Source: a virus (Duplodnaviria; Caudoviricetes). From it: a stretch of 28,842 nt of DNA. A program made the position numbers and the translations under genes. Shown piece after piece: positions 1 through 18,704 of the stretch. Position 1 is the first letter of the stretch. The number at the start of each line of letters is the position of its first letter. The stretch is taken from positions 1 to 28,842 of IMG/VR virus record IMGVR_UViG_3300032327_000392; one strand, 5' to 3'. The notes below the pieces were generated by a model that searched no databases, was not told where the DNA came from, and saw nothing but the letters and a program-made list of their open reading frames with translations.

Positions 1-60
1 CAGCAGACTTAAAATCTGCCGCCGAGAGGCTTGAGGGTTCGAATCCCTCCTTCCGCACCA
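1..60 (+). tRNA. tRNA-Leu(TAA), 5' end truncated by the window edge
   Basis: Anticodon arm GCAGA-CT-TAA-AA-TCTGC (3-19); long variable arm GCC-GAGA-GGC; T arm GAGGG-TTCGAAT-CCCTC; discriminator A57 and encoded CCA at 58-60. Confidence 0.95.
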
Positions 61-135
61 ATCTTACGGGCCTATAGCTCAGTTGGTCAGAGCAGTGAAC
101 TTTAATAAAGGAAGCAGAGATAAAGAAGATTAGAC

Positions 136-234
136 AAGGATGCTTTGTAGGCCTCTAGCATAATTGGTTAGTGCCGCAAACTCATAATTTGTATTGTTCC
201 GGTTCAAGTCCGGAGGGGCCTACAAAGTATCTTT
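136..234. repeat. 13-bp inverted repeat extending the acceptor stem of the nested tRNA
   Basis: AAGGATGCTTTGT (136-148) pairs with ACAAAGTATCTTT (222-234) through 11 Watson-Crick and 2 G-U pairs. Confidence 0.9.
149..222 (+). tRNA. Nested tRNA with CAT anticodon (probably tRNA-Ile2, lysidine type; Met possible), no encoded CCA
   Basis: Full cloverleaf: AGGCCTC/GGGGCCT acceptor; GCAT/GTGC D stem; GCAAA-CT-CAT-AA-TTTGT anticodon arm; TCCGG-TTCAAGT-CCGGA T arm; A222 discriminator followed by CAA. C4-G69 and C5-G68 match TilS recognition determinants. Confidence 0.88.
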
Positions 235-284
235 CCCTGGGTTCAAGTCCTGTTGGGCCCACCAATTCTTAATAAGGAAATAAA

Positions 285-611
285 ATGAATATTGATAAAG
301 GCGTTCGTGGTATTAAACTAGTCACGGGTGAAGATCTTCTTGCAAAAACTGGTCAAACATCAGATAATCAATGGATTTTATCTAATCCAGTTCAATTGCG
401 TATGGTACCATCGCAGATTGCAGGATCTCAACCATCTATTGGTTTTGTTCCATTTCCTTCTCTTGCAAAACAAAAAGTTGATTCTATCACTATCATTGAC
501 GGTTCACATGTGGTATACTCTTATGAACCAGACGAACAGATCACGAGTCAGTACAACTCTATCTTTGGATCTGGTATCGTCACCGCATCGAAACAAATCA
601 TCACTGGTTAA
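285..611 (+). CDS. Conserved T4-like phage protein, Sm-like fold
   Basis: IKLVTGEDLLA...LSNPV...GFVPF pattern; usual position just upstream of gp43 in cyanophage-like myoviruses; RBS AAGGA. Confidence 0.7.
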   Translation: MNIDKGVRGIKLVTGEDLLAKTGQTSDNQWILSNPVQLRMVPSQIAGSQPSIGFVPFPSLAKQKVDSITIIDGSHVVYSYEPDEQITSQYNSIFGSGIVTASKQIITG

Positions 612-614
612 TTA

Positions 615-3143
615 ATGAGTTTTCACTTTTATACGAACGTACAATGTATTGGTAATAATATATTTTATCGTGGTGTTGTTGACAACAAACGTGTCAAACT
701 CAAAATAAAATATCAGCCTTCTTTCTATGAGAAGTCCAAGTCTATTACCAAATACACAAATCTAGCCGGAGAATATCTTCAGCAGATTCGATTCGATTCT
801 ATCAACGAAGCCCGAGACTACTACAAACAATTTGATGGTGTCTCGGGTAAAACCATTTATGGTAACAATCGATATGAATATGCGTTCATTGGTGAACAAC
901 ATAAGAAATCTGTCGAGTGGGATAAAGATCGAATCGTAATTTGTTTCCTAGATATCGAAGTTGGTTCTGAGAATGGATTTCCTGATCCATACATTGCATC
1001 TGAACCAGTGACTGCTGTTGGTATGAAATATCATAATGGCAACATGTATGTCTATGGTTGTGGTGAATATAATAATGATCGTGAAGGTGTAACTTACTTT
1101 CGATGCAAAGATGAGTATTCTTTATTGAAACGTTTTCTTGAAGATTGGGTTGCCAATTATCCAGACATCATTACCGGTTGGAATACTAACTTCTTCGATA
1201 CGCCATATCTAATTAATCGTATTCGAAAGATTCTCGGTGAAGATCATGCAAAAAGATTGTCTCCTTGGAATATGATCTCCGAGCGTGAAATCACAATCAA
1301 AGGTAGAAAACAGACTGCATATGAACTGATTGGTATTACTGATCTTGATTATCTTGAATTGTACAAGTGGTTCTCGCCTGGTGGTAAGTCGCAAGAGTCA
1401 TATAAACTCGATAACATTGCTAGTGTAGAACTTGGCGAACGTAAACTATCGTATGATGAATATGATGGTCTTCATGGTCTATACAAAGAAAATCATCAAA
1501 AGTTTATTGAGTACAACATCAAAGACGTTGAACTTATTGTTCGCATGGAAGACAAGTTAAAACTTCTTGAACTTGCCTTGACTCTTGCGTATGATACAAA
1601 GACTAATTATAGTGATGTATTTGCACAGACTCGCATGTGGGATGCACTAACTTATAATCATCTTCTTGCAAAGAATGTTGTTGTACCACCACGTGTGTTT
1701 CAAAGTAAAACTGAGGCATTCGAAGGTGCATATGTCAAAGACCCTCAAGTTGGTAAACATGATTGGGTTGCATCATTTGATTTGAATTCTCTGTATCCAC
1801 ATTTGATTATTCAATATAATCTATCACCAGAAACATTAATTGAACCTGAGAACTATACTCCAGAAATGAGAGAGATTGCATCTCAAAGTATTACTGTAGA
1901 TTCTCTTCTTCAGAAAAAGATCGATCTGTCTTCTTTACATAATGTAACGATCACACCAAATGGTCAATTCTTTCGTACAGACATTCAAGGTTTTCTACCT
2001 AAGATGATGGAAGAGATGTATGAAGATCGCAAGAAGTTTAAGAAGATGATGCTTCAGGCAAAGCAAGAATATGAAGTCGAAACTGATGCAAAAAAGAAGT
2101 ATGAGATTTCTAAACGAATTGCACGTTATGACAATCTACAACTTGCAAAGAAGTTGTCATTGAACTCTGCATATGGTGCTCTGGGTAGTCAATACTTTAG
2201 ATTCTATGATCTTCGTATTGCACTTGCTGTAACTACTGCGGGTCAGTTGTCCATCCGTTGGATCGAATCTAAACTTAATCAATACATGAATAAGATGTTG
2301 AATACATCTGATGATTATGTTATTGCATCAGATACTGATTCAATTTATCTCAGACTTGGTCCTATCGTTAATAAATTCCTTAAATCGGATACTGATCCGA
2401 ATAAAGTTATTGAGTTTATGGATCGAGTTTGTGAAGATAAGATTCAACCGTTTATCGATAGATCATATCAAGAACTTTCTGAATATGTTCATGCATATGC
2501 ACAAAAGATGCAAATGAAACGTGAAGCATTGGCAGACAAAGCAATTTGGACTTCTAAGAAACGTTATATCATGCATGTGTATAATAATGAGGGTGTACAA
2601 TATGCAACACCTAAAATTAAAGTCATGGGTCTTGAGATGATTAAGTCATCGACACCGGCTGCGATTCGTGATAAGATGCATCAAGCAGTTGATATTATGT
2701 TGAAGGGTACAGAGTCTGATATTCATACGTTCATTGAGAATTCTAGAATTGATTTTAATAATTTGCCTCCAGAAGACATCTCTTTTCCTCGTGGTGTAAA
2801 TGGACTTCGTGAGTATGGTAGTAACACTACAATCTATGCGAAAGGTACACCAATTCATGTTAAGGGTGCATTACTATATAATAATCATCTAAAAGAAAAA
2901 GATCTAACTAAGAAGTATCCTCTCATTCAAGACGGTGAAAAGATTAAGTTTGTATATCTGAAGTTGCCAAATCCAATGAAAGAGGCAGTCATTTCTTTTC
3001 CTGGTCGTTTGCCGGCAGAGTTTAATCTAGACGGATACATTGACTATGAGACACAATTTCAAAAATCATTTATTGATCCAATTAAAATAGTACTAGACTG
3101 TATGGATTGGTCAGTTGAGAAAACAATTTCCCTTTGGGACTAG
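615..3143 (+). CDS. gp43: Family B DNA polymerase (T4 gp43-like)
   Basis: ExoI FLDIEV, motif A SFDLNSLYPH, motif B KLSLNSAYG, motif C ASDTDS; C-terminal clamp-binding-like ISLWD. Confidence 0.98.
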   Translation: MSFHFYTNVQCIGNNIFYRGVVDNKRVKLKIKYQPSFYEKSKSITKYTNLAGEYLQQIRFDSINEARDYYKQFDGVSGKTIYGNNRYEYAFIGEQHKKSVEWDKDRIVICFLDIEVGSENGFPDPYIASEPVTAVGMKYHNGNMYVYGCGEYNNDREGVTYFRCKDEYSLLKRFLEDWVANYPDIITGWNTNFFDTPYLINRIRKILGEDHAKRLSPWNMISEREITIKGRKQTAYELIGITDLDYLELYKWFSPGGKSQESYKLDNIASVELGERKLSYDEYDGLHGLYKENHQKFIEYNIKDVELIVRMEDKLKLLELALTLAYDTKTNYSDVFAQTRMWDALTYNHLLAKNVVVPPRVFQSKTEAFEGAYVKDPQVGKHDWVASFDLNSLYPHLIIQYNLSPETLIEPENYTPEMREIASQSITVDSLLQKKIDLSSLHNVTITPNGQFFRTDIQGFLPKMMEEMYEDRKKFKKMMLQAKQEYEVETDAKKKYEISKRIARYDNLQLAKKLSLNSAYGALGSQYFRFYDLRIALAVTTAGQLSIRWIESKLNQYMNKMLNTSDDYVIASDTDSIYLRLGPIVNKFLKSDTDPNKVIEFMDRVCEDKIQPFIDRSYQELSEYVHAYAQKMQMKREALADKAIWTSKKRYIMHVYNNEGVQYATPKIKVMGLEMIKSSTPAAIRDKMHQAVDIMLKGTESDIHTFIENSRIDFNNLPPEDISFPRGVNGLREYGSNTTIYAKGTPIHVKGALLYNNHLKEKDLTKKYPLIQDGEKIKFVYLKLPNPMKEAVISFPGRLPAEFNLDGYIDYETQFQKSFIDPIKIVLDCMDWSVEKTISLWD

Positions 3144-3152
3144 GAGTAAATT

Positions 3153-4205
3153 ATGGGTATTATGGATAAAATTAAAAAGAATAGTTCAATCAAAGATTCT
3201 GCTATTCTTTCGAAGTCTAAGTTCTTTAATGATAAGGATATGATTACAACGTCTATCCCTATTATTAACGTGGCATTAAGTGGAAGTTTAAATGGTGGAT
3301 TGACACCCGGACTGACCATGTGGGCGGGCCCATCAAAACATTTCAAATCTGCATTTTCGCTTTTTATGGCAAAATCTTATTTGGACAAGTACGAAGATGC
3401 AGCACTCTTATTCTACGATTCTGAGTTTGGTACGCCGAAATCATATTTCGATTCTTTTGGTATTGATATGGATCGAGTTTTGCACACTCCTCTTACTGAT
3501 ATCGAACAATTAAAGTCTGATATCATGCAACAGATTTCTAATGTGGAACGTGGTGATCGGTTGATCATTATTGTCGATTCTATTGGTAATCTTGCGTCTA
3601 AGAAAGAAGTTGATGATGCACTTGAAGGTAAAACTGTTGCAGACATGACTCGTGCAAAAGCAGTCAAGTCTTTGTTTAGAATGATTACTCCACATCTGAC
3701 GTTGAAAGATATTCCAATGATTGTAGTTAATCATACCTACAAAGAGATTGGACTTTATCCTAAAGATATCGTTGGTGGTGGTACTGGTAGTTATTACTCT
3801 GCTGATAACATCTTTATTCTTGGTCGCCAACAAGAAAAAGCAGGAACAGAAATTGTAGGTTATAACTTTATTATTAATGTTGAGAAATCCAGATATGTTA
3901 AAGAAAAATCTAAAATACCTGTTTCTGTATCTTTTGATGGTGGTATCAGTAAGTGGTCTGGTTTACTTGATCTTGCTATCGAGTCAGGACACGTTATTAA
4001 ACCATCCAATGGTTGGTATTCAAAAGTAGATAAAGACACCGGTGTAGTTGAAGATAAAAAGTATCGTGAAAAAGATACCGACACTAAAGAATTTTGGCAA
4101 CCAATTCTTGATCAGAAATCTTTTAATGACTTTGTTGAAGATAAGTATCGATATTCCAATAATAACTTGATTCAAAGTGAGGAAGAATATGAAGACGCTA
4201 ACTGA
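3153..4205 (+). CDS. uvsX: RecA-like recombinase UvsX
   Basis: GPSKHFKS Walker A, FYDSEFG, IVDSIGNLASKKE; RBS AGGAG; synteny with gp43 and gp41. Confidence 0.97.
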   Translation: MGIMDKIKKNSSIKDSAILSKSKFFNDKDMITTSIPIINVALSGSLNGGLTPGLTMWAGPSKHFKSAFSLFMAKSYLDKYEDAALLFYDSEFGTPKSYFDSFGIDMDRVLHTPLTDIEQLKSDIMQQISNVERGDRLIIIVDSIGNLASKKEVDDALEGKTVADMTRAKAVKSLFRMITPHLTLKDIPMIVVNHTYKEIGLYPKDIVGGGTGSYYSADNIFILGRQQEKAGTEIVGYNFIINVEKSRYVKEKSKIPVSVSFDGGISKWSGLLDLAIESGHVIKPSNGWYSKVDKDTGVVEDKKYREKDTDTKEFWQPILDQKSFNDFVEDKYRYSNNNLIQSEEEYEDAN

Positions 4206-4518
4206 AGGCATTGATTATGCATATATTGTACCATCAGATAAAGATACAACAGTACATCTAAAGATTCTAAATGGTATCTTTAAGGATACTGTATATCAAT
4301 ATGGTAAAGTTAAATTTGACGAAGACAAAGAAACTGGTGACATATACTTAAGGTTCGTGTACAATATAGTTGAGACTCCACTTGATGCTGATCAACTGGA
4401 GAAAGACTTGAACTTCAAGAACAAGATCGGCGACATTCTTGTGAGCATCATGGAACAAAATCAAGGAATACAGGATGAAATTGGAGACAGTTATATTGAG
4501 GAATCTGATCAGGAATGA
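4189..4518 (+). CDS. gp40-like head vertex assembly chaperone (putative)
   Basis: Small acidic ORF between uvsX and gp41, where T4 has gene 40. ATG 4189 follows a GAGGA RBS and is preferred over GTG 4177. Confidence 0.55.
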   Translation: MKTLTEGIDYAYIVPSDKDTTVHLKILNGIFKDTVYQYGKVKFDEDKETGDIYLRFVYNIVETPLDADQLEKDLNFKNKIGDILVSIMEQNQGIQDEIGDSYIEESDQE

Positions 4519-5857
4519 AGACTATCTTCGTAAGGTACTTCCATTTCTGAAGACTGAATACTTTACTGATAAAACTGAAAAGATAATTTATGAAGAAATC
4601 AACAAGTTCACAGAAACTTACAACTCTACACCAACGATTGAATCGATTGAATTGGCCGTCAAAGAAAGGCGAAATCTCTCGGATGAAGAACTGGAGAAGT
4701 CCAAGTCGTATCTACATGAAATTGCTTCGTTTAAAGATGAAGAATCCAAAGTTCAATGGCTTACTGACAAAACCGAAAAGTTCTGTCAGGAAAGAGCAAT
4801 CTACAATGCTGTATTGGGGTCTATTTCAATCTTGGACGGAAAAGACAAGTCCAACGACAAAGGTGCGATTCCCAAAATATTATCAGACGCTCTAGCTGTT
4901 AGTTTTGATAATTCAGTCGGTCATGATTATCTGGAGAACTCGGATGAACGATATGAATTTTATCATCGAAAAGAGGAACGAATTCCATTTGACCTCGAAT
5001 ACTTTAATAAAATCACAAAGGGTGGTCTTCCTGCCAAGACACTTAATATTGCCCTTGCTGGAACCGGAGTTGGTAAATCTTTGTTTATGTGCCATGTGGC
5101 TGCTGGCGCTATGGCACAAGGTAAGAATGTCCTTTATATCACTCTTGAGATGGCCGAAGAAAAGATTGCCGAGAGGATTGATGCAAATCTATTGAATGTT
5201 TCGGTTGATGTATTGATGGAACTACCTCGTGACATGTATGAACGTAAAGTCAAACGTGTCAAAGATATGACAACTGGTAAACTAATCATCAAAGAGTATC
5301 CTACTGCATCAGCATCATCTACACACTTTAGGACTCTACTAAATGAACTCAACCTTAAAAAGTCATTTGTACCCGATATTATCTTCATTGATTATCTTAA
5401 TATCTGTTGCAGTTCTCGTATTAAGCCTGGGTCCAACATTAACTCGTATACATACGTTAAGTCTATTGCGGAAGAATTGCGAGGACTTGCCGTTGAGTAC
5501 GGAGTCCCAATTGTATCTGCGACTCAGACCACAAGATCCGGCTTTACTTCTTCCGACCCAGGACTCGAGGATACGAGTGAGAGTTTTGGTTTGCCAGCGA
5601 CTGCGGATCTAATGTTTGCGCTGATTACATCAGAAGAACTTGAAGCGCTTGGTCAAATTATGGTGAAGCAGTTGAAGAATCGATATTCTGATCCAACTGC
5701 ATTCAAAAGATTTGTTATTGGTGTTGACAGGTCGAGAATGAAACTGTATGATGTAGAACAGACAGCGCAAGATGGACTTGCTGATGCTGGTAAACAAGAT
5801 AATCAACCACAACAAAATAAATTTAAAAAGAAAGACTTTTCTGGATTTAAAGTATGA
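4475..5857 (+). CDS. gp41: DnaB-like replicative helicase (T4 gp41)
   Basis: AGTGVGKS Walker A, YITLEMAEE, IFIDYLNI, SATQTTR, KQLKNRY. Confidence 0.98.
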   Translation: MKLETVILRNLIRNEDYLRKVLPFLKTEYFTDKTEKIIYEEINKFTETYNSTPTIESIELAVKERRNLSDEELEKSKSYLHEIASFKDEESKVQWLTDKTEKFCQERAIYNAVLGSISILDGKDKSNDKGAIPKILSDALAVSFDNSVGHDYLENSDERYEFYHRKEERIPFDLEYFNKITKGGLPAKTLNIALAGTGVGKSLFMCHVAAGAMAQGKNVLYITLEMAEEKIAERIDANLLNVSVDVLMELPRDMYERKVKRVKDMTTGKLIIKEYPTASASSTHFRTLLNELNLKKSFVPDIIFIDYLNICCSSRIKPGSNINSYTYVKSIAEELRGLAVEYGVPIVSATQTTRSGFTSSDPGLEDTSESFGLPATADLMFALITSEELEALGQIMVKQLKNRYSDPTAFKRFVIGVDRSRMKLYDVEQTAQDGLADAGKQDNQPQQNKFKKKDFSGFKV

Positions 5858-6960
5858 AATTGACTCATGAAGATGGTTTAGTTTGCGCTAAAGCATTTCA
5901 AAACTACTTTGGAAATTTTGATCGGATCGATGAGTACATGAGAGATCAAAAGATCAATTCATTGTCATCGATTCCTCAATCTTTGTTTCCTCCAGAAGAT
6001 GACTTGTTCTCAGACTTCTCGATGCATCCAAATGATATGGATATTCAAGTTTGTCAGATACCGACCATACAATGGCAAACACTACTTAGTATTACATCTT
6101 CACATGTAAACTCAAGTCCAGTTGGACGAAGAATTGAATTTGCAATCAAAGAAAAGAACACAGATAAGTTTCTAGGATTCATTCGACTCGCTTCACCTGT
6201 AATTAATTGTAAACCTAGAAACGAAATGTTATCTCAAGTATTTACACAGAAATCGGAGTGGAATAAAAGATTTAATCGATCTGCAATGATGGGTTTTGCT
6301 ATTGTTCCTAGTCAACCTTTTGGTTTTAATTACTTGGGTGGTAAACTTCTCGCTGCAATTTGTTGTTCACACACCGTACGTGAAATTGTCAACGAGAAAT
6401 ATGATATGAATTTGTGTTTGTTTGAAACGACTAGTTTGTATGGATCTTCAAAACAAGTATCTCAGTATGATGGAATGAAGCCTTATGTGAGATACAAAGG
6501 TTTGACTGATTCTAATTTTCTACCAATGATGCATGGTAAACCATATTCGGATCTTCGTGATTTTGTGCAATCTAAAGTCGGTCCACTAGTTGAAGAGAAG
6601 ACTTCTAGTAAGAAACTAACGATAACGATGTCGATCATATCTTTAACTAAGGCTGCACTCAAAGGAACACCTGCGGCTGATGAATTCGATGCAACAATCG
6701 AGAAAGCAAAGAATCTGACTGAAAAGAAAAGATACTATATTTCTAACTATGGTTTCTCTAACTACATCGATTATATTAATTGCAAGACTGACACACTCAT
6801 CAAAGATAAAGAAAACTATGACAAGTTTGAACTTGAGAAGATTGTGCAGTGGTGGAAACAAAAGGCTACCAATCGATATGAGTCGTTAAAAAGTGAGAAT
6901 CGTCTTCGCACTAAACTTGAAGTTTGGACAAATGATCATGATATAGATATTATGAGATAA
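5854..6960 (+). CDS. DUF4338 / Druantia DruA-like protein (putative GNAT/Mom-related fold)
   Basis: VPSQPFGFNYLGGKLLA...S...KY...ETTSLYG...SQY motif set recognised as typical of this family; ATGA overlap with the gp41 stop. Confidence 0.65.
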   Translation: MKLTHEDGLVCAKAFQNYFGNFDRIDEYMRDQKINSLSSIPQSLFPPEDDLFSDFSMHPNDMDIQVCQIPTIQWQTLLSITSSHVNSSPVGRRIEFAIKEKNTDKFLGFIRLASPVINCKPRNEMLSQVFTQKSEWNKRFNRSAMMGFAIVPSQPFGFNYLGGKLLAAICCSHTVREIVNEKYDMNLCLFETTSLYGSSKQVSQYDGMKPYVRYKGLTDSNFLPMMHGKPYSDLRDFVQSKVGPLVEEKTSSKKLTITMSIISLTKAALKGTPAADEFDATIEKAKNLTEKKRYYISNYGFSNYIDYINCKTDTLIKDKENYDKFELEKIVQWWKQKATNRYESLKSENRLRTKLEVWTNDHDIDIMR

Positions 6961-8231: not shown

Positions 8232-8957
8232 ATGGGTCCTTTGATAACGGTGATTACACCAACAACTGGTAGTTCAACATTACGTCAAGTTATTCAATCA
8301 GTCAGTAATCAGACATACAAGAATATCCAACATATTGTTGTGATTGATGGCAAAGAACGAGAACATATTGCTATGCCTTATCTTCGGCGTTCAATTGCTG
8401 ATATAGTAACACTTCCATATCCAACAGGTAAAGATCAATACAATGGTCATCGGATCTACGGTGCAATGTCATACGTTGCAAAAGGTGACTTTATTTGTTT
8501 TCTAGATGAAGACAATTGGTTTGAACTGAATCATGTTGAAAAACTTGTTGAACAAATTCTTGATGGCAATCAATGGGCATATTCACTTCGAAAGATTGTA
8601 GATCAAGATGGTAAATTCATTTGTAATGATGATTGTGAATCTCTTGGTAAATGGAAATCAGTTATTAATGATAACTTTATTGATGTTAATTGTTACATGA
8701 TTTCTAAAATCGATGCAATTGCTTTTTCACCATATTGGTATCGTAGAGCAAGACATCCACAAGAGCAACCAGAAGTTGATAGAATTCTTTCTGCATTTAT
8801 GATGCAGAACAAAAAAACATTTGACACAAGTGGTCTATATACTGTAAACTATCGTGTAGCGAGTCGGGCAGATTCTGTACAAGACAGTTTCTTCATTCGT
8901 GGTAATGAAGTGATGAAAAACAATATGAACGGAGAGTATCCATGGCGAAAGATTTAA
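8232..8957 (+). CDS. Glycosyltransferase family 2 (GT-A)
   Basis: ITVITPT, HIVVIDG, AKGDFICFLDEDN (DxD). Confidence 0.9.
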   Translation: MGPLITVITPTTGSSTLRQVIQSVSNQTYKNIQHIVVIDGKEREHIAMPYLRRSIADIVTLPYPTGKDQYNGHRIYGAMSYVAKGDFICFLDEDNWFELNHVEKLVEQILDGNQWAYSLRKIVDQDGKFICNDDCESLGKWKSVINDNFIDVNCYMISKIDAIAFSPYWYRRARHPQEQPEVDRILSAFMMQNKKTFDTSGLYTVNYRVASRADSVQDSFFIRGNEVMKNNMNGEYPWRKI

Positions 8958-9850
8958 TTATTGGTGCATTCACCAATTATGATGAGTTCCAAGTTCTTAG
9001 ACCTTGGGTACAATCTATCAACGATTCAGGTTTCGAGGGCGATAAAGTATTGATAGCGATCAATACGACACAAGAGATGTGTCAAGAAATTATCGACGCT
9101 GGATTTAATGTTATTGCCGTAACCGATACTGAGCAAAAACTACGAGTACATATGCTCAGATTTATTCATGTATATGATTTTCTAAACAAACATGCTGATG
9201 ACTATCGATTCGTTATCACAACTGATGTTCGTGATGTAATCTTTCAATCGAATCCATCTAAGTTCATGGATAACTATTTCAACAAAGGACTCAAAGGACG
9301 CGATTCGTTAAAATTGATTGCACAATCTGAAGCAATTAGAATCAAAGATGAAGCATGGAATCGTGATAACATCATCAAGAATTTTGGTAAATTCTTCTAC
9401 GAAGATGTTAAAGATAAAGAAGTTCTAAACGTTGGAATTATTGCAGGTCTAGCACATTCAGTCAAAGATCTCTGTTTCTTTCTATTTCAAATGTCGTTGA
9501 ATCGTCCTGATTGGGTTGCAGATCAAGCAGCGTATAATATGATTTGTAATTTTAGTCCATTCAAAGATGTTATTGACGTTATACCTCTGAAATATGCTTG
9601 GGCATTGAACGCTCATGTCACAAGTAAACCGGATCAAATGGAAGAGTTCGGTCCATATCTTCTTGAAGAAAGACCTAAGATGATTGATGGCGTCATATAT
9701 AATTCGAATGATAAACCTTTTGTTATTGTGCATCAGTATGATCGTGTTCCAGAATGGATGGATTACTTCTCTAAAAAATATAACTTGACTTTTAATAACA
9801 AGACAAACTTTGGTTCATCGCCAAAGTACTTTACATACAAAACAACCTGA
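8942..9850 (+). CDS. Putative GT-A fold glycosyltransferase
   Basis: VITTDVRDVIFQSNP, LNVGIIAG, DQAAYN and IVHQYDR motifs typical of nucleotide-diphospho-sugar transferase-like proteins. Confidence 0.7.
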   Translation: MAKDLIIGAFTNYDEFQVLRPWVQSINDSGFEGDKVLIAINTTQEMCQEIIDAGFNVIAVTDTEQKLRVHMLRFIHVYDFLNKHADDYRFVITTDVRDVIFQSNPSKFMDNYFNKGLKGRDSLKLIAQSEAIRIKDEAWNRDNIIKNFGKFFYEDVKDKEVLNVGIIAGLAHSVKDLCFFLFQMSLNRPDWVADQAAYNMICNFSPFKDVIDVIPLKYAWALNAHVTSKPDQMEEFGPYLLEERPKMIDGVIYNSNDKPFVIVHQYDRVPEWMDYFSKKYNLTFNNKTNFGSSPKYFTYKTT

Positions 9851-9858
9851 GAGATATA

Positions 9859-10677
9859 ATGAGTAAAATTAGCATTGTTACTGCATTCTACGATATTGGT
9901 CGTGGAGATTGGACAGCAGATAAAGGATTTCCACATTACCTTGAGCGTTCTACTGATACATACATTCAACGATTTTCCCATCTTGCACAACTTGATAATG
10001 AGTTGATTGTTTTCTCAACATCTGATATCATTGAAAAACTAAAGAAGCATCGTGTTGGTAAAGAGTCTAATACAAAGTTCGTTCATTTTGAACCACGAAC
10101 TGTGTTTGCCAAGACACGCCAAAAGATCAAAGAAATTCAAGAACTGGATGAATTTCAGAAATTGATTTATCCTTCTCAAAAGAAGAACCCAGAATACTGG
10201 AATCAAGATTATGTTCTTGTTACTAATTTAAAAGCATACTTCGTACAGAAAGCAATCGAAGATGGCCTAGTCTCAAATGAGATGGTTTCTTGGATTGATT
10301 TCGGTTACTGTAGGTCTGTTGATAAGATTCCTAAATCTAAGACATGGGAATATGATTTTGATGAGTCGAAGATTCATATGTTCTCATATCATGATTATGA
10401 TTATGATCGTCCAATCTCTGATGTTGTTGCATCAAACGATGTACACATTCTTGGTGCAAAAGTTGTGGCACGGCAAGATCTGTGGGGTAAATTAGATCAA
10501 CTAATGCTTGAATCACAAGCTAGTTTATTTGGTGAAAACTTAGTCGATGATGACCAAACTTTATTCTTATTGTCATATCTATTTGAATCAGATTTGTTCC
10601 ACTTGCACTCTATTCCTGATCACCAGAAAGGACATGATCCTTTTGTTCTATTCAATAACTTCAATACAACAGCATGA
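9859..10677 (+). CDS. HtrL/YibB family protein (LPS-locus associated, glycosyltransferase-like)
   Basis: IVTAFYDIGRGDW, RSTDTY...F, NPEYW...Y, WIDFGY, DDDQ. Confidence 0.85.
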   Translation: MSKISIVTAFYDIGRGDWTADKGFPHYLERSTDTYIQRFSHLAQLDNELIVFSTSDIIEKLKKHRVGKESNTKFVHFEPRTVFAKTRQKIKEIQELDEFQKLIYPSQKKNPEYWNQDYVLVTNLKAYFVQKAIEDGLVSNEMVSWIDFGYCRSVDKIPKSKTWEYDFDESKIHMFSYHDYDYDRPISDVVASNDVHILGAKVVARQDLWGKLDQLMLESQASLFGENLVDDDQTLFLLSYLFESDLFHLHSIPDHQKGHDPFVLFNNFNTTA

Positions 10678-12053
10678 ATAAACTAATTATTTTTGATTTG
10701 GATGGAGTCTTGATTGACTCTAGAGAACTACACTATGATGCATTAAATGCGGCACTTCGTAAAGTAGGCGAAGAATATGTAATTTCTCGTCAAGAGCATC
10801 TTAGTCTTTATGATGGTCTTAATACTACCAAGAAATTAAAGATGTTGACTGAATACAAAGGTCTGCCCGTGTCAGTATATGACAAAGTTTGGCAAGACAA
10901 ACAGAAGTCAACTTTTGATTTGCTTCGCAAATTTAATCCAGAGTTTTACTTGAGTGCCATTTTCAATATGGCAAGAAATCGTGGATATAAGATTGCAGTT
11001 GCTTCCAATTCAATCAGAGAGACAGTAAAACTATCTCTACTAAGTATTGAACTGATGGACTATGTTGATTATTTTGTTAGCAATGAAGATGTGAAACGAT
11101 CAAAACCATATCCAGAAATGTACTGGAAATGCATGACTGCACTTAATGCATTACCTAAAGATACAATCATTGTTGAAGATAGTCATATCGGCAGACAAGG
11201 TGCTTTAGACTCGGGTGCTCATCTTCTAGCAGTTGAGAATTCGAATGAAGTGAATTCACAACATATGATGGAAAGGATTAGTAATTTTATGGACAATATT
11301 GAAGGCAAGACACAGAAGTCTCTACCATGGCGAGATAATAAATTGAATATTGTTATCCCTATGGCGGGTGCCGGTAGTAGATTTGCACAAGCGGGTTATA
11401 CGTTTCCTAAACCTTTGATTGAGGTTCGTGGTAAACCAATGATTCAAGTGGTTGTTGAGAATCTTAACATCGAAGCAAACTATATCTTCCTTGTGCAGAG
11501 AGAACATCATGACAAATATAATCTAAAGTATTTGCTTAATCTGATTGCACCAAACTGCAAGATTGTTCTTGTTGATGGTCTAACAGAAGGTTCTGCTTGT
11601 ACAACTCTTCTTGCAAAAGAATACATTGATAATGATGCACCTCTTTTGATGGCAAATTCAGATCAGTTCATCGAGTGGAATTCTAATGAATGTATGTACG
11701 CATTTACTGCTGATGAAATTGATGGTGGAATTCTAACATTTGAAGCAACACATCCTAAGTGGTCATATGCTAGAATTGGTAAAGATGGTTTTGTATCTGA
11801 AGTGGCGGAAAAGAAAGTAATCTCTAATCATGCAACTGTTGGTATCTACTATTGGAAGAAAGGTTCTGATTACGTCAAATATGCTGAACAGATGATCCAT
11901 AAAGGAATACGAACAAATAATGAATTCTATATTTGTCCAGTTTTCAATGAAGCAATTGAAGATGGTAAGAAAATTCGTGTTAAACATATTGATAAAATGT
12001 GGGGTATTGGAACTCCAGAAGATCTAAACTATTTCCTGGATAATCACAAATGA
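10674..12053 (+). CDS. Bifunctional HAD phosphatase / sugar-nucleotidyltransferase
   Basis: N-terminal FDLDGVLID, KPYPE, VEDS (HAD motifs); C-terminal IPMAGAGSRF...PKPLI...GKPMI and GIGTPEDL (NTP transferase). Confidence 0.92.
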   Translation: MNKLIIFDLDGVLIDSRELHYDALNAALRKVGEEYVISRQEHLSLYDGLNTTKKLKMLTEYKGLPVSVYDKVWQDKQKSTFDLLRKFNPEFYLSAIFNMARNRGYKIAVASNSIRETVKLSLLSIELMDYVDYFVSNEDVKRSKPYPEMYWKCMTALNALPKDTIIVEDSHIGRQGALDSGAHLLAVENSNEVNSQHMMERISNFMDNIEGKTQKSLPWRDNKLNIVIPMAGAGSRFAQAGYTFPKPLIEVRGKPMIQVVVENLNIEANYIFLVQREHHDKYNLKYLLNLIAPNCKIVLVDGLTEGSACTTLLAKEYIDNDAPLLMANSDQFIEWNSNECMYAFTADEIDGGILTFEATHPKWSYARIGKDGFVSEVAEKKVISNHATVGIYYWKKGSDYVKYAEQMIHKGIRTNNEFYICPVFNEAIEDGKKIRVKHIDKMWGIGTPEDLNYFLDNHK

Positions 12054-12856
12054 AAAATGTAGTATTCTTTATTACGCATAAGACGTTGATGAATGAACAT
12101 GCCAACGCAACGTTTTATGGAATGTCTAAACAAGTTATGCGCGATGATAAGATGTTTGATACACTATACATCTACAACACTCATGCCGACGAGTTGCCAA
12201 ATGAAGTATTGTTGGAAATGTATAATGACTATGATCTCCGACGATACTTCAAAGAAGTTAAGGTGTTTAATTATGACAACAATACTTCTAAATCACTAGG
12301 TGGTGATGTAACTGCAATCCGTGATTATATGATTGCAAACTATGCACCAGAAGATCGATATCTGATGTTAAAATCAGACTGTGTTCTGAGTAAAAACTAT
12401 TTTGATGAGATTTTGCATCTGCCAGAAGATCGTCCAGTTTACTTTGTTGCACCATTTATTTGTGCAAAAGAGAGAATCTCTGACGCAGAGATCTTTGAGT
12501 ATTCAGAAAGAGATAAAGTTGTTTTCTCAGATGATATTACTTTCTTTGTAGAAGATCAAAATCATACAGAAGAAAGTGATTTCAAAAATCGACCTGGTGT
12601 TAATGTAACAGATTACAAGATTAAATTTACATCGTGTTATGTTATCCGAGACTTCTCTGTGCATTTTTTATCTGTCGGTCTTGCACATTTGATGGAGATC
12701 CATATCTACACATGGGGTGGTTTGAACTTCTGGAGACTAGTCCCATGGTTTATTGAAACGGATCGGTGTTTTGTGATACATAAGTATCATGGTGTGATTT
12801 CAGAGAATAGACAAACGGATCGAGAAGGTCCAGTTCTTTCATGGTTAAAAAGTTAA
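12050..12856 (+). CDS. Hypothetical protein in the glycan island (possibly a divergent glycosyltransferase)
   Basis: 268-aa ORF translationally coupled to its neighbours; RYLMLKSDC segment weakly resembles a GT-A DxD strand. Confidence 0.55.
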   Translation: MKNVVFFITHKTLMNEHANATFYGMSKQVMRDDKMFDTLYIYNTHADELPNEVLLEMYNDYDLRRYFKEVKVFNYDNNTSKSLGGDVTAIRDYMIANYAPEDRYLMLKSDCVLSKNYFDEILHLPEDRPVYFVAPFICAKERISDAEIFEYSERDKVVFSDDITFFVEDQNHTEESDFKNRPGVNVTDYKIKFTSCYVIRDFSVHFLSVGLAHLMEIHIYTWGGLNFWRLVPWFIETDRCFVIHKYHGVISENRQTDREGPVLSWLKS

Positions 12857-12866
12857 GGTGAATATT

Positions 12867-13565
12867 ATGCAACAATTAAATCTTTATAATTCTACTGCAA
12901 AAATTGATGATAATCAGGGAATGTATGATGCTTTTAATACATTCATGTTTAGTAACGATCGGAATGTTTTTAATAAACTATATTATAAATTCAAGTTATA
13001 CGAGATGACTGAACATCTAGTCGGAGATATTGTTGAGTGTGGTGTTTTTAAAGGCACTGGACTAATGGCTTGGTTAAAGATTCTACAACTCAATGAAGCT
13101 AATAGTATTCGTAAAGTTATCGGTTTTGATTTCTTTAATCCTGGTTTCGTTGAGAATCTAGAAGATGAAATTGATCGTGTGACGATGGAACAAGTTTTCA
13201 CTCGTACAGAATCTGGTGATTTCTCGCAAGCAGGAATTCATAAAAAGATAGTAAATGCCGGTTTTGATGAAAGTCGATTTGAACTAGTTCCTGGTGATAT
13301 CAGTATTACTTCTGCTGAGTATGCAAAGTCTCGACCTGGATTTAGAATTAGTCTACTCTATCTTGATTTGGATCTAGATCGACCAACGTATGACACACTA
13401 ATTAATCTGTGGGATCGCGTGGTGCCAGGTGGTGTCGTTGTGTTTGATGAGTATGCATATCACAGTTGGTCAGAATCAAATGCTGTTGATAGATTTATGA
13501 ATGAGAAAGGTCTATATCTGTACAAAACTGATATCAAAACTCCAACCGCTTATATTATTAAATAA
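12867..13565 (+). CDS. TylF/MycF-family sugar O-methyltransferase
   Basis: GDIVECGVFKG, GFDFF, ISLLYLDLD, PGGVVVFDEY. ATG 12867 follows an AAGGTG RBS (the track starts at GTG 12858). Confidence 0.85.
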   Translation: MQQLNLYNSTAKIDDNQGMYDAFNTFMFSNDRNVFNKLYYKFKLYEMTEHLVGDIVECGVFKGTGLMAWLKILQLNEANSIRKVIGFDFFNPGFVENLEDEIDRVTMEQVFTRTESGDFSQAGIHKKIVNAGFDESRFELVPGDISITSAEYAKSRPGFRISLLYLDLDLDRPTYDTLINLWDRVVPGGVVVFDEYAYHSWSESNAVDRFMNEKGLYLYKTDIKTPTAYIIK

Positions 13566-13566
13566 T

Positions 13567-14265
13567 ATGAAAACTGCTGTACTACTAGTTGGTAACGTTC
13601 GTACATGGGAAAAATGTAGGGATAACTTTGTCGAAGTTTTTGGTAAATACAATCCTGATATCTTTCTCGCAACGTATGATACACGATATGGTTATCATCC
13701 TGCCGTTCGTAATAGAATCGGTTATTATGATGATGAGATTTTATCTCGAAAAGAAATAGGAGATATGTTTAAAGGATTAAACCTCAGAGTCGTAGATTAC
13801 GAACGTCTAGATCAGGCGAATGATCGAATATTCTATGCATTAGAGAAAGTGCATAAAATGTTTGGAGAATGTTATAGTTATTACGCACAGTATCGTAAGA
13901 TGAAATCTGCCGTAGATATCATGCAGAAACATGAATATGAGATTGGCGAAAGATATGGACGTGTAATTAGAACTCGATGCGATCTTATGCACAACGGTAT
14001 CAATTTTGATGATGTTGATGGTAAAATTATTATCGATTCAGGAAATGTATTTCCTAATGACTGTTTCTTTATGACAAATAGAGATGCTGCTGTTAATATT
14101 GCTGACTTCATGATGGAAGAATTCTTCAATCCAAAGTATGAAAACAGTGCAGAACGTCCACCCCATCAAATGTTTTTGAATGCAATCAAAGATAATAATC
14201 TTGAAGTTTCTGTTCAGAAAATTATGCAATGTGTTGTTAGACAAAATCAAATTCAATATTATTAA
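13567..14265 (+). CDS. Putative glycosyltransferase-like protein (GxxR...RxRxD type)
   Basis: MKTAVLLVGNVR...DIFLATY...YGRVIRTRCD...NDCFF pattern seen in polysaccharide loci; ATG 13567 lies right after the previous stop. Confidence 0.55.
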   Translation: MKTAVLLVGNVRTWEKCRDNFVEVFGKYNPDIFLATYDTRYGYHPAVRNRIGYYDDEILSRKEIGDMFKGLNLRVVDYERLDQANDRIFYALEKVHKMFGECYSYYAQYRKMKSAVDIMQKHEYEIGERYGRVIRTRCDLMHNGINFDDVDGKIIIDSGNVFPNDCFFMTNRDAAVNIADFMMEEFFNPKYENSAERPPHQMFLNAIKDNNLEVSVQKIMQCVVRQNQIQYY

Positions 14266-14275
14266 GGAGAAAAAA

Positions 14276-14968
14276 ATGACAAATTATGAAGTTAAACAGA
14301 GAGACGAACACATGTATCAACATCATTATGTTCTCTGGAGACAAGTTAGAATCAATAAAATCGAACAAATATTTGGAAAAGAATTCTTCAAAGATAAGAC
14401 AATTTTAGAATTGGGTTGTGGTTACGGAGATATTGGTAAATACTTTAAAGAAAGCTTACAGGCAGATGTTACTTTTGCTGAAGGTCGCGAAGAACATTTC
14501 CCTTTCATTAGAGGGAATGTTTCTGGTTGTAAAATTGTTCACATAAATCAAGAGAATCATTGGCAACTAGAAACAAAATACGATGTAGTGATTCATTTTG
14601 GAGTAATGTATCATCTAGATAATTGGAAACAAGATCTTGAATGTACACTAAAACATTCAGATCTAGTTATTTTAGAAACTGAGGTCGCAGATTCAAATGA
14701 TCCAACTTTCGAACAAAAATTCGTTGATATGATAAGTTATGATCAAGCTATGGGTCCTAAATTATTGGCGACTAGACCTTCGGCTGCATATATTGAATCT
14801 GTTTTTTCTGAAAATGGATTTTCGTTTGTGAGATATGATGATACTGATTTAGATACTGATATACATAACTATAGTTGGAAAGTAACAGGATCGGCAGAAT
14901 CACATAAATCTGAAAGATCTGTTGGTGTTGGAAAACGTAGATTTTGGGTAGTCAGAAAGATAACTTAA
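14276..14968 (+). CDS. Class I SAM-dependent methyltransferase
   Basis: ILELGCGYG motif I, YDVVIHFGVMYHL; ATG 14276 follows AAGGAG. Confidence 0.88.
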   Translation: MTNYEVKQRDEHMYQHHYVLWRQVRINKIEQIFGKEFFKDKTILELGCGYGDIGKYFKESLQADVTFAEGREEHFPFIRGNVSGCKIVHINQENHWQLETKYDVVIHFGVMYHLDNWKQDLECTLKHSDLVILETEVADSNDPTFEQKFVDMISYDQAMGPKLLATRPSAAYIESVFSENGFSFVRYDDTDLDTDIHNYSWKVTGSAESHKSERSVGVGKRRFWVVRKIT

Positions 14969-14969
14969 A

Positions 14970-15431
14970 ATGAAATACATTGCACACAGAGGTCTTTTTC
15001 AAGGTCCAAATAAAGAACTGGAAAATACACCAGATCAGATTAAATTGGCCCTATCGAAAGAATATCATTGTGAAGTTGATATTTGGTGGATTGATCGTGA
15101 ATGGTATCTAGGTCACGATAGACCTCAATATAAAACTTCAGAATCTTTTTTCGAAGAGAAAGGTCTCTGGTTGCATTGTAAAAACTTAGATGCGTTATAT
15201 TATATGAGAAGATATTATAATCATCTCGTATATTTTTGGCATCAGAAAGATGATTTCACTTTAACATCAAATCAGATACTTTGGACATATCCAGGTAAAG
15301 ATTTAACGTCTAAATCTGTTGCTGTTATGCCAGAATATGCTGGAGATGAATACTGGAATTATGTAAAGAAAACACAAGTATATGGTGTCTGTACCGACTA
15401 CTTGGAGAAGTTTATCTCTGAGACTAGTTGA
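14970..15431 (+). CDS. Small PLC-like / GDPD-like phosphodiesterase
   Basis: IAHRG...EN, EVDIW, LGHD, WLHCKN, GVCTD. Confidence 0.8.
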   Translation: MKYIAHRGLFQGPNKELENTPDQIKLALSKEYHCEVDIWWIDREWYLGHDRPQYKTSESFFEEKGLWLHCKNLDALYYMRRYYNHLVYFWHQKDDFTLTSNQILWTYPGKDLTSKSVAVMPEYAGDEYWNYVKKTQVYGVCTDYLEKFISETS

Positions 15432-15476: not shown

Positions 15477-16673
15477 ATGTTATCATTTCGTAGATTCATT
15501 ATTGAACAAGAAGAAGAGGCATCAGAAGGTGCAAGCCGTCAAATTAAACATTTGACGCATATAGAAGATCGTCCATTACAGACTGGAAAGAAGGGTGCTG
15601 AACACGCAATCTCAGCACTAAATGCCGCAGCACAACACATTAAAAGTGGCAATAATAATTCAGAACTTACGACAAAATATGATGGTTCACCTGCAATCGT
15701 GTATGGTCATCATCCAGAAACTGGTAAGTTTTTCGTTGCATCAAAGTCTGCATTTAATAAGACTCCAAAAATAAATTATAATGAAGCAGACATTGAAAAG
15801 AATCATGGTCATGCACCAGGTCTTGCTGACAAACTAAAAGCAGCACTTCACCATTTACCTAAGATTGCACCTAAACACGGTGTATATCAGGGCGACATGA
15901 TGTTCACCCATGAAGATAAGAAGTCTGGTCCAAAGGGATCAGTCTCTTTTAATCCAAATCCATCAGGTATCACATATACTGCACATGGCGATTTGGCAAA
16001 TAAAGTTAAGAAAGCAAAGATGGGTGTGGTCACCCATTTAATGTATCATGGCAAAGACGCAAGTAGTCTAAGTGCATCACATGGTGTAGATCATGAGTCA
16101 TTTAAACATCATCCAGATGTGTTTACTGTTGATCCTAGAATGGACACAAGCGCAGTTCATTTTAGTCCAAAACAACAATCAGAATTTAAGAAACATTTAA
16201 CTGCCGCATCTAATATTCATCAAAAACATGGTGAAAACATGTATGCGTTGACAAAAGAACACCAAGGTGTTGGATCTCATTTAGAAACATTTATAAATCA
16301 TACGATCAAAACAGATAAACAACCAAATCACGAAAACTTTAAACATTTTATAGAAAATCATTATAACAAAGCTATCGATAAATTAAAGACAGACAAGAAT
16401 AAAAATCAGAAGAAATCAGAACTGATCCAACACCTCCATCACATCGAAAGAAATAAAGAACACTATAATAATCTATTCAAAATGCATCAACATCTCCAGA
16501 AAGCAAAGAATGTACTAGTGGACGTTATGAATCAAAAACAAGATTTCGAACACACTCATGGTGGTGAGAAAGCTAATCCAGAAGGATACGTTTTCCATCA
16601 TGGCGGAGAATCTGATAAGTTAATTAATAGAGCAGAGTTCAGTAAACGTAATTTCGCTAACCGTACACACTAA
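15477..16673 (+). CDS. DUF6267-like protein with ATP-dependent ligase-type motifs; His-rich; predicted head-packaged
   Basis: TKYDG (motif I KxDG, Lys67), YQGD (motif III-like), PEGYV (motif IV), DKLINR (motif V); N-terminus MLSFRRFIIE. Confidence 0.7.
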   Translation: MLSFRRFIIEQEEEASEGASRQIKHLTHIEDRPLQTGKKGAEHAISALNAAAQHIKSGNNNSELTTKYDGSPAIVYGHHPETGKFFVASKSAFNKTPKINYNEADIEKNHGHAPGLADKLKAALHHLPKIAPKHGVYQGDMMFTHEDKKSGPKGSVSFNPNPSGITYTAHGDLANKVKKAKMGVVTHLMYHGKDASSLSASHGVDHESFKHHPDVFTVDPRMDTSAVHFSPKQQSEFKKHLTAASNIHQKHGENMYALTKEHQGVGSHLETFINHTIKTDKQPNHENFKHFIENHYNKAIDKLKTDKNKNQKKSELIQHLHHIERNKEHYNNLFKMHQHLQKAKNVLVDVMNQKQDFEHTHGGEKANPEGYVFHHGGESDKLINRAEFSKRNFANRTH

Positions 16674-16674
16674 T

Positions 16675-18420
16675 ATGAAAAGTTTTCTACAAAAGATCAC
16701 AGAAGAAACTGCAACTAAGAGTCCTGTAGTGATGGCTTTTGGTCGGATGAATCCTCCAACTATTGGTCATGAGAAATTAGTTAATAAAGTTAAAGAAATC
16801 GCACATGATTATCATGCACCACATCATATTATTATATCACACACGCATGATGCAAAGAAGAATCCACTAGATGCTGAAAATAAACTAAGACATGCGAAGA
16901 GATTCTTTCCTAATACAAATATCACAACGTCAGATAGATCACATCCGACTTTCCTACAACATGCCGCAAGACTAAATCATGCAGGTCATGACCATCTTGT
17001 CATGGTTGCAGGATCTGATAGAGTTGATGAATATAAACATAAATTGAATCAATACAATGGTACTCATGAAGGTGCATTATTTAATTTCAAAAAGATAGAT
17101 GTAAAGTCCGCTGGTCAAAGAGATCCAGATGCAGAAGGTGCAGAAGGAATGTCTGCATCTAAAATGAGAGAACATGCAAAGAATAATGATTTCACTTCAT
17201 TCAAACAAGGTATTCCGGCACATGTTCCTGAACACCATGCTAAAGAATTGATGCGTGATGTTCGTCGAGGTATGGGAATTCATGAAGATGTAGATTACGG
17301 TAAATATAAAGCACTCTTTATCTTTGGTGGACCAGGTTCCGGTAAAGATATAATTATCCGCGAGATGGTTGCAAACGAAAATGTTGTAGAGATGAATACA
17401 TCTTTGGCATCTTCTGTTCTTTCTAAAATGAACGAAAATGTTAAAGATTACAGATGTGATATTATTAGAAATAGAATGCCATTGATTATCAATAGCACAA
17501 CTAATGAGACTGAATTAGTCGTAGAGATGAAAGATAATCTAGAGAGACTTGGATATGTAACGATGATGATTTTCGTCGAGACTTCAAATGAAGTCTCTAG
17601 AATTAGAAATGAAAATCATGTTAAGTCGATATCAGAATCTGTTCGATTTGAACGATGGAAACAGACTAGAAAATCTTCTATGGAATTGTCAGAACATTTT
17701 AATAAGTATCTACAATTTGATAACTCGGTTGATCTTAATCAAGCGAATGATTTACAGATTGCTGAAAAAGAAGAAGACATTACAACGATTACAGAAATGA
17801 TTGATTGGTTCTGGAGTACTTCAGCAAAGAATGTTCAAACTAAAGATGTTAGACGTTTAGTTGAATCTGTTAAGGTATGTACATGTAAATATCCAAGAAA
17901 GTCGATATTTGAAAACATCTGTCCATCATGTCAAATGGTTAGAAAGTCGGGTAAGATTGATTCTGTTAATGATGGTGATGTTCAATCCAATTCTGGATAT
18001 ACGTTCAAAACCTATGAGGCATCTCCAACCATTTCTGTTAAACCAGAACCGAAAGATCCAAACTTTCAACAAGATGCAGATAAGATTCGTTCAAAGAAAC
18101 AGAGACTTAATCCAAATGGTGCCGGCAAAGTTCTAAAACCAGCAGGTATTAGTCCAGAATATGATACACGTGGATCTGGAACAGTATATCCAATGTCTGG
18201 TCTTGGGCAAGTTACATATAGAGAACAGAAAGAGAATAAATACACTAAGAAGTCATTTTCTAAGTTTAGAAGAGAGTCTATGGATTCACCGGGTGATGAG
18301 ATGGGTGTAACTGGTGGTTATCATGGACCATCTAATAAAGATCCTATAGATACTCTGAATAAAGTAGACACTACACCAACAAAGAAGAAAAATGAAAAGT
18401 TTCAAAGAGTTCGTGGCTGA
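16675..18420 (+). CDS. HIGH-superfamily cytidyltransferase-like domain fused to a P-loop kinase-like domain and a low-complexity tail
   Basis: FGRMNPPTIGH, VAGSDR, MSASKMR (aa 1-204); GGPGSGKD and GYVTMMIFVETS (kinase-like); N-terminus MKSFLQKITEE. Confidence 0.8.
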   Translation: MKSFLQKITEETATKSPVVMAFGRMNPPTIGHEKLVNKVKEIAHDYHAPHHIIISHTHDAKKNPLDAENKLRHAKRFFPNTNITTSDRSHPTFLQHAARLNHAGHDHLVMVAGSDRVDEYKHKLNQYNGTHEGALFNFKKIDVKSAGQRDPDAEGAEGMSASKMREHAKNNDFTSFKQGIPAHVPEHHAKELMRDVRRGMGIHEDVDYGKYKALFIFGGPGSGKDIIIREMVANENVVEMNTSLASSVLSKMNENVKDYRCDIIRNRMPLIINSTTNETELVVEMKDNLERLGYVTMMIFVETSNEVSRIRNENHVKSISESVRFERWKQTRKSSMELSEHFNKYLQFDNSVDLNQANDLQIAEKEEDITTITEMIDWFWSTSAKNVQTKDVRRLVESVKVCTCKYPRKSIFENICPSCQMVRKSGKIDSVNDGDVQSNSGYTFKTYEASPTISVKPEPKDPNFQQDADKIRSKKQRLNPNGAGKVLKPAGISPEYDTRGSGTVYPMSGLGQVTYREQKENKYTKKSFSKFRRESMDSPGDEMGVTGGYHGPSNKDPIDTLNKVDTTPTKKKNEKFQRVRG

Positions 18421-18685: not shown

Positions 18686-18704
18686 TTTAAACCCGGAGAC
18701 TAAG

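Follow-up and report, generated by a model that had tools for sequence, protein, structure and literature searches.

The tRNA lying within a tRNA at positions 68–264 of the window (the whole stretch of 28,842 nucleotides analysed here) is a decayed relic and not a designed nested RNA. It is quite probably the deletion remnant of a cassette composed of a predicted endonuclease gene and a spare CAT tRNA, likely spread by intronless homing. Three allele states at one slot, shared cassette ends in two tRNA genes, and the loss of the resident halves elsewhere are established by comparison, and homing of the cassette is what these sequences suggest.

Layout of the nested locus and identity of its tRNAs

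The nested layout at 68–264 is real, as confirmed by the sequence, ARAGORN, Rfam, and folding. The outer pieces are, as an earlier note on this DNA had described, the halves of one tRNA. They run from 68 to U33 at 101 and from 240 to ACCA at 264, and their acceptor strands pair at seven of seven positions (one G-U). The gap between them holds a second, complete CAT tRNA, placed at 149–223 by ARAGORN, which finds no other tRNA in the window, and at 149–222 by Rfam (RF00005, 56.8 bits, E 1.3e-10). The gap, earlier put at about 135 nt, measures 138 nt (102–239) and stands in place of 18 nt of the resident gene, from the anticodon to the T-stem 5' strand. The loss of a clean 3' anticodon strand and variable loop from the outer gene was correctly seen but is only part of the loss, as the anticodon itself and the T-stem 5' strand are also gone. 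The features of the locus are as follows:

1–60, + strand: 3' part of the upstream tRNA-Leu(TAA), a neighbour outside the cassette (Rfam tRNA match at 1–57, 5'-truncated; the contig start cuts the gene)
68–101, + strand: 5' half of the resident CAT tRNA, with the acceptor strand, D arm, and 5' strand of the anticodon stem, ending with U33, after which the cassette begins; same sequence as in the L001 empty allele and in L130
102–103, + strand: deletion junction, 523 nt absent relative to L130, with a 1-nt overlap within an imperfect 9-nt repeat; the joint is seen in run X1
105–158, + strand: relic of the endonuclease gene by translation, last 17 codons and stop, with no start codon remaining; the stop codon is positions 8–10 of the inner tRNA
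136–148, + strand: leader strand of the 13-bp extension to the inner acceptor stem, folding with 222–234 and conserved over 10 variants; doubles as the last codons of the nuclease
149–222, + strand: cargo tRNA, anticodon CAT at 183–185, without an encoded CCA (ARAGORN, Rfam)
222–234, + strand: trailer strand of the 13-bp helix (folding and conservation across variants)
235–239, + strand: right end of the cassette, the same in L129, L130, and L390; stands in for the resident T-stem 5' strand and leaves the T stem mismatched
240–264, + strand: 3' remnant of the resident tRNA, with the T loop, T-stem 3' strand, acceptor strand, and ACCA; identical to the empty allele
285–611, + strand: conserved gene of unknown function (phrog_527) used as the synteny anchor, with a T4-like DNA polymerase gene next downstream

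The 138-nt insert is fully accounted for by the ORF relic, the tRNA, and the trailer. The protein-coding relic (105–158) and the 13-bp helix (136–148/222–234) are both absent from the earlier note.

The window is a T4-like phage contig, with downstream ORFs of the DNA polymerase, recombinase, helicase, and primase types, named from reading their translations. ORFs of the sugar-modification type (glycosyltransferase-, phosphatase-, and methyltransferase-like by reading the sequences) occupy 8232–15431, between the replication genes and very large low-complexity ORFs at 15477–21559. A blastn comparison of window 1–620 with cultured phages returned 283 records, none with 80% query coverage, and all of the 40 matches listed fall within window 1–110 only.

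The inner and outer tRNAs both carry G3-C70 together with C4-G69 and C5-G68, the last two pairs having been read correctly from the sequence before. tRNA-Ile(CAT) is marked by G3-C70 (Silva 2006, PMC1635315), and the rule given there for tRNA-Ile2, the TilS substrate, is G3 or A3 with C70 or T70, with C4-G69 and C5-G68 frequent (PMC1635315). The cargo tRNA is likely of the Ile2 type, as had been proposed, judging from G3-C70, although the C4-G69 pair cited in support is kept in just three of the 10 cargo variants (C4 in three, G3 and C5 in all 10). Cargo and resident tRNAs are identical in 54 of 75 columns, and aligned copies of the cargo show compensatory changes in the acceptor, anticodon, and T stems. 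The AUA codon makes up 84 of the 588 Ile codons in 27 window ORFs and six of 11 in the L130 nuclease, counts too weak to argue from. A simple immunity rule, by which the cargo would differ from its target in the 3' strand of the D stem, was rejected: it holds in the window lineage and fails across the family, in which some cargos have D arms like those of their targets.

Empty, full, and deleted alleles of the slot

Eight syntenic loci were found via the downstream protein. Six of them possess an empty allele, an intact CAT tRNA that agrees with the outer pieces of the window over its 34 initial and 25 final bases. The layout is not due to chance, since the relatives' intact gene begins and ends with exactly these two sequences. 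In the other two (L006, L007), a different intact CAT tRNA occupies the slot, and the insert is absent from all eight. The entire tRNA-Leu(TAA) gene is present in L001–L004 and L006–L008; upstream of it, ARAGORN calls a Gly(ACC) with an odd anticodon arm, a call that may be wrong. Tandem duplication of two ordinary tRNAs, which the earlier note had named alongside misassembly as an outcome that would refute its reading, can be set aside, since the halves lie on either side of the insert and together correspond to a single intact gene.

A probe of the inner tRNA identified two viral loci, L129 and L130. L130 contains the full insert at the same slot, composed of the outer 5' half, a nuclease ORF, an identical inner tRNA, and the same 3' remnant, with nothing but the ORF and the tRNA between the halves. 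The ORF is 190 residues long from stop to stop, approximately 180 amino acids from its start codon, and its stop codon lies inside the inner tRNA. Compared with L130, the window lacks 523 nt, and 103–264 differs at 3 nt. The deletion took most of the nuclease gene along with the -35 box of an internal promoter-like site of the sigma-70 type (TTGACA-17-TATAAT), found at the 3' end of the L130 ORF. L129 has undergone a separate deletion that left four bases of the outer 5' half and retained the promoter-like site. On the minus strand of L130, just upstream of the CAT cassette, a second cassette occupies the neighbouring slot, where 24 nt of the resident tRNA-Leu(TAA) are accompanied by an HNH ORF and another tRNA-Leu(TAA) that differs from the resident.

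A near-identical full cassette was found in a different resident tRNA, between tRNA-Arg and tRNA-Gly, in L390, the only metagenome match for the cassette. It begins after U33 and finishes at the T loop, as in the slot of the window, and this recurrence with unchanged ends in another tRNA gene indicates that the cassette moves as a unit. Both L130 and L390 are without an integrase or a rebuilt resident tRNA, and each consists of one nuclease ORF and a split resident gene. The search for empty-site alleles and for the same insert elsewhere that the earlier note had called for was thus successful on both counts (the L001 group and L390). These loci uphold its proposal that a tRNA-bearing element invaded the anticodon of a CAT tRNA and brought a replacement with the same anticodon; the element was a nuclease cassette of approximately 660 nt, here deleted, and not the small tRNA-only element envisaged.

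A degenerate probe returned nine loci, L129 and L130 among them. A nuclease frame is present in L297 and L298, behind other outer halves, and in L295, where it is cut by the contig end, while in L293, L294, L296, and L300 the tRNA is preceded by no more than 10–15 relic codons and only a few letters remain of the former 3' end. The same junction of nuclease and tRNA is found behind other outer halves in L297, L298, L315, L318, and L323.

These decayed copies bear on the earlier note's suggestion that the nested RNA functions as a precursor, whose outer shell, including its CCA, would guide processing or shield the inner tRNA. The 197-nt RNA (68–264) can indeed fold as nested (z -3.5), with the inner acceptor stem lengthened by the 13 pairs of 136–148/222–234, and a contig from an RNA run extends over 107–358 at a depth of 2.1, which may be DNA. 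However, the short nested form arose by deletion from the insert of approximately 660 nt, and the T stem of the outer gene is mismatched. That L129 has lost the 5' half shows the shell to be dispensable, and the inner tRNA persists there as well as in the four loci without nearly all of both halves (L293, L294, L296, L300), so that a role for the shell is very improbable.

The support from sequencing runs comes from Logan contigs throughout; 14 runs with under half of the query words were left out. In X1, which may be the source sample, a 4671-nt contig is identical to window 72–900 and spans the 523-nt joint with a 32-nt side. In X3, from the same study, the full nuclease allele (581 nt, three differences) occurs with an empty allele, so that empty, full, and deleted alleles are all present across the two runs of one study. 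X2 and X4 are without coverage of 121–150 and X6 is without coverage of the nuclease, gaps that prove nothing. A chimeric assembly of two tRNA alleles would agree with the depths in X1, where the empty alleles are far deeper (48 and 80) than the deleted allele (8.5), and with the exact left (deletion) junction, which has no match in the JGI metagenomes, where records of the window's own genome may be lacking, and is seen only in X1, the possible source run. On the other hand, all pieces match L130 in order with three differences, the X1 contig crosses the joint, and L129 has its own independent deletion. Independent occurrences of the right junction are found in L129, L130, and the RNA-run contig, which stops short of the left junction. 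The misassembly that the earlier note had asked to be ruled out is therefore unlikely, and a chimera of this kind has very little probability.

The cassette nuclease and related split-tRNA cassettes

The ORF of L130 matches an endonuclease family, phrog_15137 (E 2e-20), while its matches in Pfam are all below cutoff (NUMOD3, E 0.0045). A PD-(D/E)XK-like motif, PDFY...EVKG, is kept in five of five aligned rows. The structural model, built with five sequences, has a pLDDT of 72.8, and Foldseek found nothing in the PDB at E <= 0.001. In VIA-align, TnsA (Z 7.1, rmsd 2.6, 89 aligned) is near the top with the domain of the homing endonuclease I-Bth0305I and Vsr (both Z 6.6), scores below 8 being middling. 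Taken together, the phrog match, the motif, and the model indicate that the ORF likely encodes a PD-(D/E)XK-like endonuclease.

Homologs were collected as the best 80 of 451 stretches, from 33 of 64 parts scanned, and gave 68 distinct loci, one without the ORF. Among these best 80 of 451 stretches, ARAGORN places a CAT tRNA at the nuclease stop in 27 of 68 homolog loci and another tRNA in 10, and in 24 of the 34 closest distinct loci, chosen by protein alone, the tRNA at the stop is CAT. The overlap between stop and tRNA is exactly 10 nt in 12 of these 24 CAT loci, and the orphan 5' halves upstream of the homologs mostly end at U33 or C34. Homologs also occur in 38 records of cultured phages, eight of which were examined. 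For instance, PhaxI has a 5' half, the nuclease, and a CAT tRNA with the 10-nt overlap; an overlap of stop and tRNA is present in Kuja, and one uncultured record has a CAT tRNA downstream of the nuclease. Acinetobacter phage AM101 (L305) and CkP1 (L307) possess a related nuclease between both halves of a CAT tRNA with no cargo, PX29 (L308) has the 3' half only and no cargo, and IME341 and IME13 hold other debris. Since nucleases without cargo split CAT tRNAs in AM101 and CkP1, compensation is common but not obligatory. AM101 keeps both halves whole, with a hairpin over a late-promoter-like leader. In L223, a CAT tRNA has a 13-pair leader–trailer helix and an orphan 3' piece, and a different PD-(D/E)XK-like ORF lies further upstream.

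The undamaged halves of AM101 and CkP1 around a related nuclease gene are what would be expected if the insert were an intron, self- or enzyme-spliced, with its removal restoring the outer tRNA as proposed for the Lak introns. The left junction at U33 agrees with this, and other phages hold intact tRNAs with tRNA-like inserts at the anticodon, as in a separate class of loci described below and in PMC6784885. In the window, however, 18 nt of the outer gene are gone, and the missing anticodon brings the intron reading close to exclusion. The outer gene goes uncalled by ARAGORN even with its intron option and a lowered threshold; 1296 in-silico excisions gave 31 ARAGORN calls at the default threshold, none of them CAT and with scattered boundaries; and Rfam, up to E 1, detects no intron family in window 1–6000. 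Splicing is hence most improbable here.

The 10 distinct variants of the nuclease end read GCFxxL-stop, and none encodes CCA. With the window's own variant aside, their cargo bodies have 45–65 letters identical to the 73 of the window. Over the first 11 leader–trailer pairs in these variants, 106 of 110 positions are paired (86 Watson–Crick and 20 G-U), the remaining four being two A-C and two other, and that G-U outnumbers A-C in this way suggests that selection has acted on the RNA encoded by this strand. In eight aligned copies, the helix is 94% paired against 35–52% in slid controls, with one-sided variation in four pairs and two-sided variation in one, figures that are supportive but amount to no probability because the copies are related and the structure was taken from one of them. 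RNase P cuts a tRNA at +1 and would remove the stop codon of the nuclease; for this reason, the helix may choose between the mRNA and tRNA fates of the transcript, or it may be a double-strand processing site. The helix joining the last codons of the nuclease to the tRNA trailer offers a testable idea, namely, that a toxic nuclease is limited through tRNA processing.

A generic scan for two T loops 20–56 nt apart and ending in RCCA returned 162 loci, 127 of them distinct; a full tRNA followed by an orphan 3' piece was observed in 96 of these 127. An orphan 5' half that pairs with the 3' piece is present in 30 of the 96, compared with 3.9 +/- 1.7 (maximum 8, 100 draws) when acceptors were swapped. 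One of the 30 is a member of an intron-like class and one is L130. An ORF of a nuclease family (HNH, His-Me, GIY-YIG, EndoVII, or PD-(D/E)XK-type; Pfam E <= 0.01 or PHROGs E <= 0.001) lies between the halves in 24 of the 30; these counts are biased and are lower bounds, as a T loop was required in the remnant, which biases the right junction, and about a dozen flanks were short. Outer halves that keep at least two anticodon letters match the cargo in L136, L186, L195, L261, and L276, as read by eye. The design of a nuclease cassette in a split tRNA is therefore widespread.

Other short relics of a tRNA in a tRNA are L041 (Leu TAA with a NUMOD3-like peptide remnant) and L102 (Arg TCT), indicating that the state seen in the window recurs with other anticodons. 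A separate class with intact outer tRNAs (Gln, Pro, Lys, and others) is composed of L145, L148, L154, L159, L162, L174, L183, and L193, with L151 and L182 added by eye. Their inserts are 58–85 nt long, tRNA-like, with a T loop and an ACCA end, and sit apparently between anticodon positions 35 and 36; when an insert is removed, ARAGORN recognizes a tRNA. They look like true tRNA-shaped introns, near the Lak case, which could be excised by the combined action of RNase P, 3' trimming, and a ligase. In addition, L011, L036, L057, L060, and L086 encode tRNA-like RNAs of 120–123 nt that have an acceptor stem and CCA as well as additional hairpins, among them a second T-loop motif; they may be kin of the T4 species I/II RNAs.

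The scan also bears on whether the cassette spreads passively, with recombination at conserved tRNA motifs swapping alleles, selection (for example, against a host anticodon nuclease) retaining them, and the nuclease hitchhiking. Both junctions fall at the most conserved tRNA motifs, the slot also carries a different plain CAT tRNA in L006 and L007, and the tRNA outlives the nuclease. In contrast, the 24 of 30 loci with a nuclease ORF between split halves involve four unrelated nuclease families. Moreover, the family of the L130 nuclease is tied to CAT tRNAs (24 of 34) and, with or without cargo, enters at the CAT anticodon, which is what site choice by the enzyme would predict. Passive spread is accordingly considered unlikely, and homing is the preferred reading.

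Proposed life cycle and comparison with known systems

In the proposed mechanism, the predicted enzyme would cut CAT tRNA genes that lack the cassette, at a site within or close to the anticodon arm, and the break would be repaired from the donor via the conserved tRNA halves, setting the left end at U33/C34 and the right end at the T loop. The cargo tRNA would supply the lost function, likely AUA decoding as tRNA-Ile2, and thus make the insertion harmless without splicing. Later, the nuclease gene and the dead halves would erode while the cargo stays. In the window, where the promoter-like site of the cassette is broken, transcription reading through from the upstream tRNA cluster would supply the cargo.

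A broader proposal, which is possible but more doubtful than not, is that such cassettes add to introns and inteins a third means by which a homing endonuclease can reside in its own conserved target, namely by carrying a cut-resistant spare gene. In the subfamily of the window, the spare would also control the enzyme: with the stop inside the tRNA and the last nuclease codons held to the tRNA trailer by a helix of 11–13 bp, one transcript would serve as either mRNA or pre-tRNA, and maturation would destroy the message. Repeated invasion and decay would then be a main route by which phage tRNA alleles are replaced.

The tRNA in a tRNA can thus be regarded as one frame of a life cycle that passes through empty, invaded, and decaying states to a tRNA alone. 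The series of loci is unusually complete, with stages before and after invasion at one slot that provide natural test substrates. It suggests how phage tRNA alleles get swapped, which bears on the mosaic tRNA sets of phages and is a possible way in which phage tRNAs might outrun host anticodon nucleases. It also cautions that, among the tRNA introns predicted in phages, some are nuclease relics.

Mobile group I introns and inteins carry a homing endonuclease in its own target, and the damage is undone by RNA or protein splicing. The cassette resembles them in having a nuclease gene in its own presumed target within a conserved gene, with the damage neutralised, but here the damage is offset by a spare gene copy and not by splicing. 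Some integrative elements interrupt a tRNA gene on insertion and restore it with a duplicate that they bring along. An interrupted tRNA gene whose function is kept by a carried sequence is common to both, whereas the cassette has no integrase, does not rebuild the resident, brings in a whole diverged tRNA, and replaces 18 nt of the target.

The megaphage precedent mentioned in the earlier note is real: a tRNA-Thr(TGT) intron of Lak phages may encode a tRNA, with the outer tRNA predicted to be intact, according to the available text of the report (PMC6784885). The window is similar to the Lak introns in having a tRNA-like sequence within a tRNA gene and empty alleles in related phages (PMC6784885). 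In contrast to the Lak outer tRNAs, predicted to be intact after removal, the outer gene of the window is short of 18 nt, and its insert is a nuclease relic with an isoacceptor. Among the titles and abstract openings of the literature searched, no description of a cassette of nuclease plus isoacceptor was found; the word "intron" is absent from the main text of PMC7162821, and the available part of PMC12386605 has nothing relevant to the cassette.

The closest likeness is to free-standing homing enzymes. The free-standing T4 enzyme SegB, of the GIY-YIG type and encoded in the tRNA cluster, recognises a T-loop motif and cuts within tRNA genes, so that cleavage of such genes by a phage homing enzyme has a precedent (PMC2330249). 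Free-standing homing enzymes are described as intergenic, with a cut site hundreds of bases or more from their gene, in the accessible portion of PMC2988022. As with T4 SegB and the seg and mob genes, the cassette provides an optional, intronless nuclease gene in a phage tRNA cluster, absent from relatives. The genes of these enzymes are also known to contain promoters that serve downstream genes, and the full cassette has its sigma-70-type site. Of the features that define the group, a nuclease domain with a DNA-binding module is predicted in the full allele of L130 (NUMOD3 being sub-cutoff and the modelled fold restriction-like), of which the window keeps 17 codons; the nuclease is absent from the slot in all eight relatives; and no intron family occurs in window 1–6000. 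The intergenic position is the exception: unlike SegB, a GIY-YIG enzyme encoded between genes with a distant cut site, the cassette has a PD-(D/E)XK-like gene inside a split tRNA gene, carries a replacement of like anticodon, and has the nuclease stop codon within that replacement tRNA. By analogy, the cassette would work like the free-standing homing enzymes in all but this intergenic feature.
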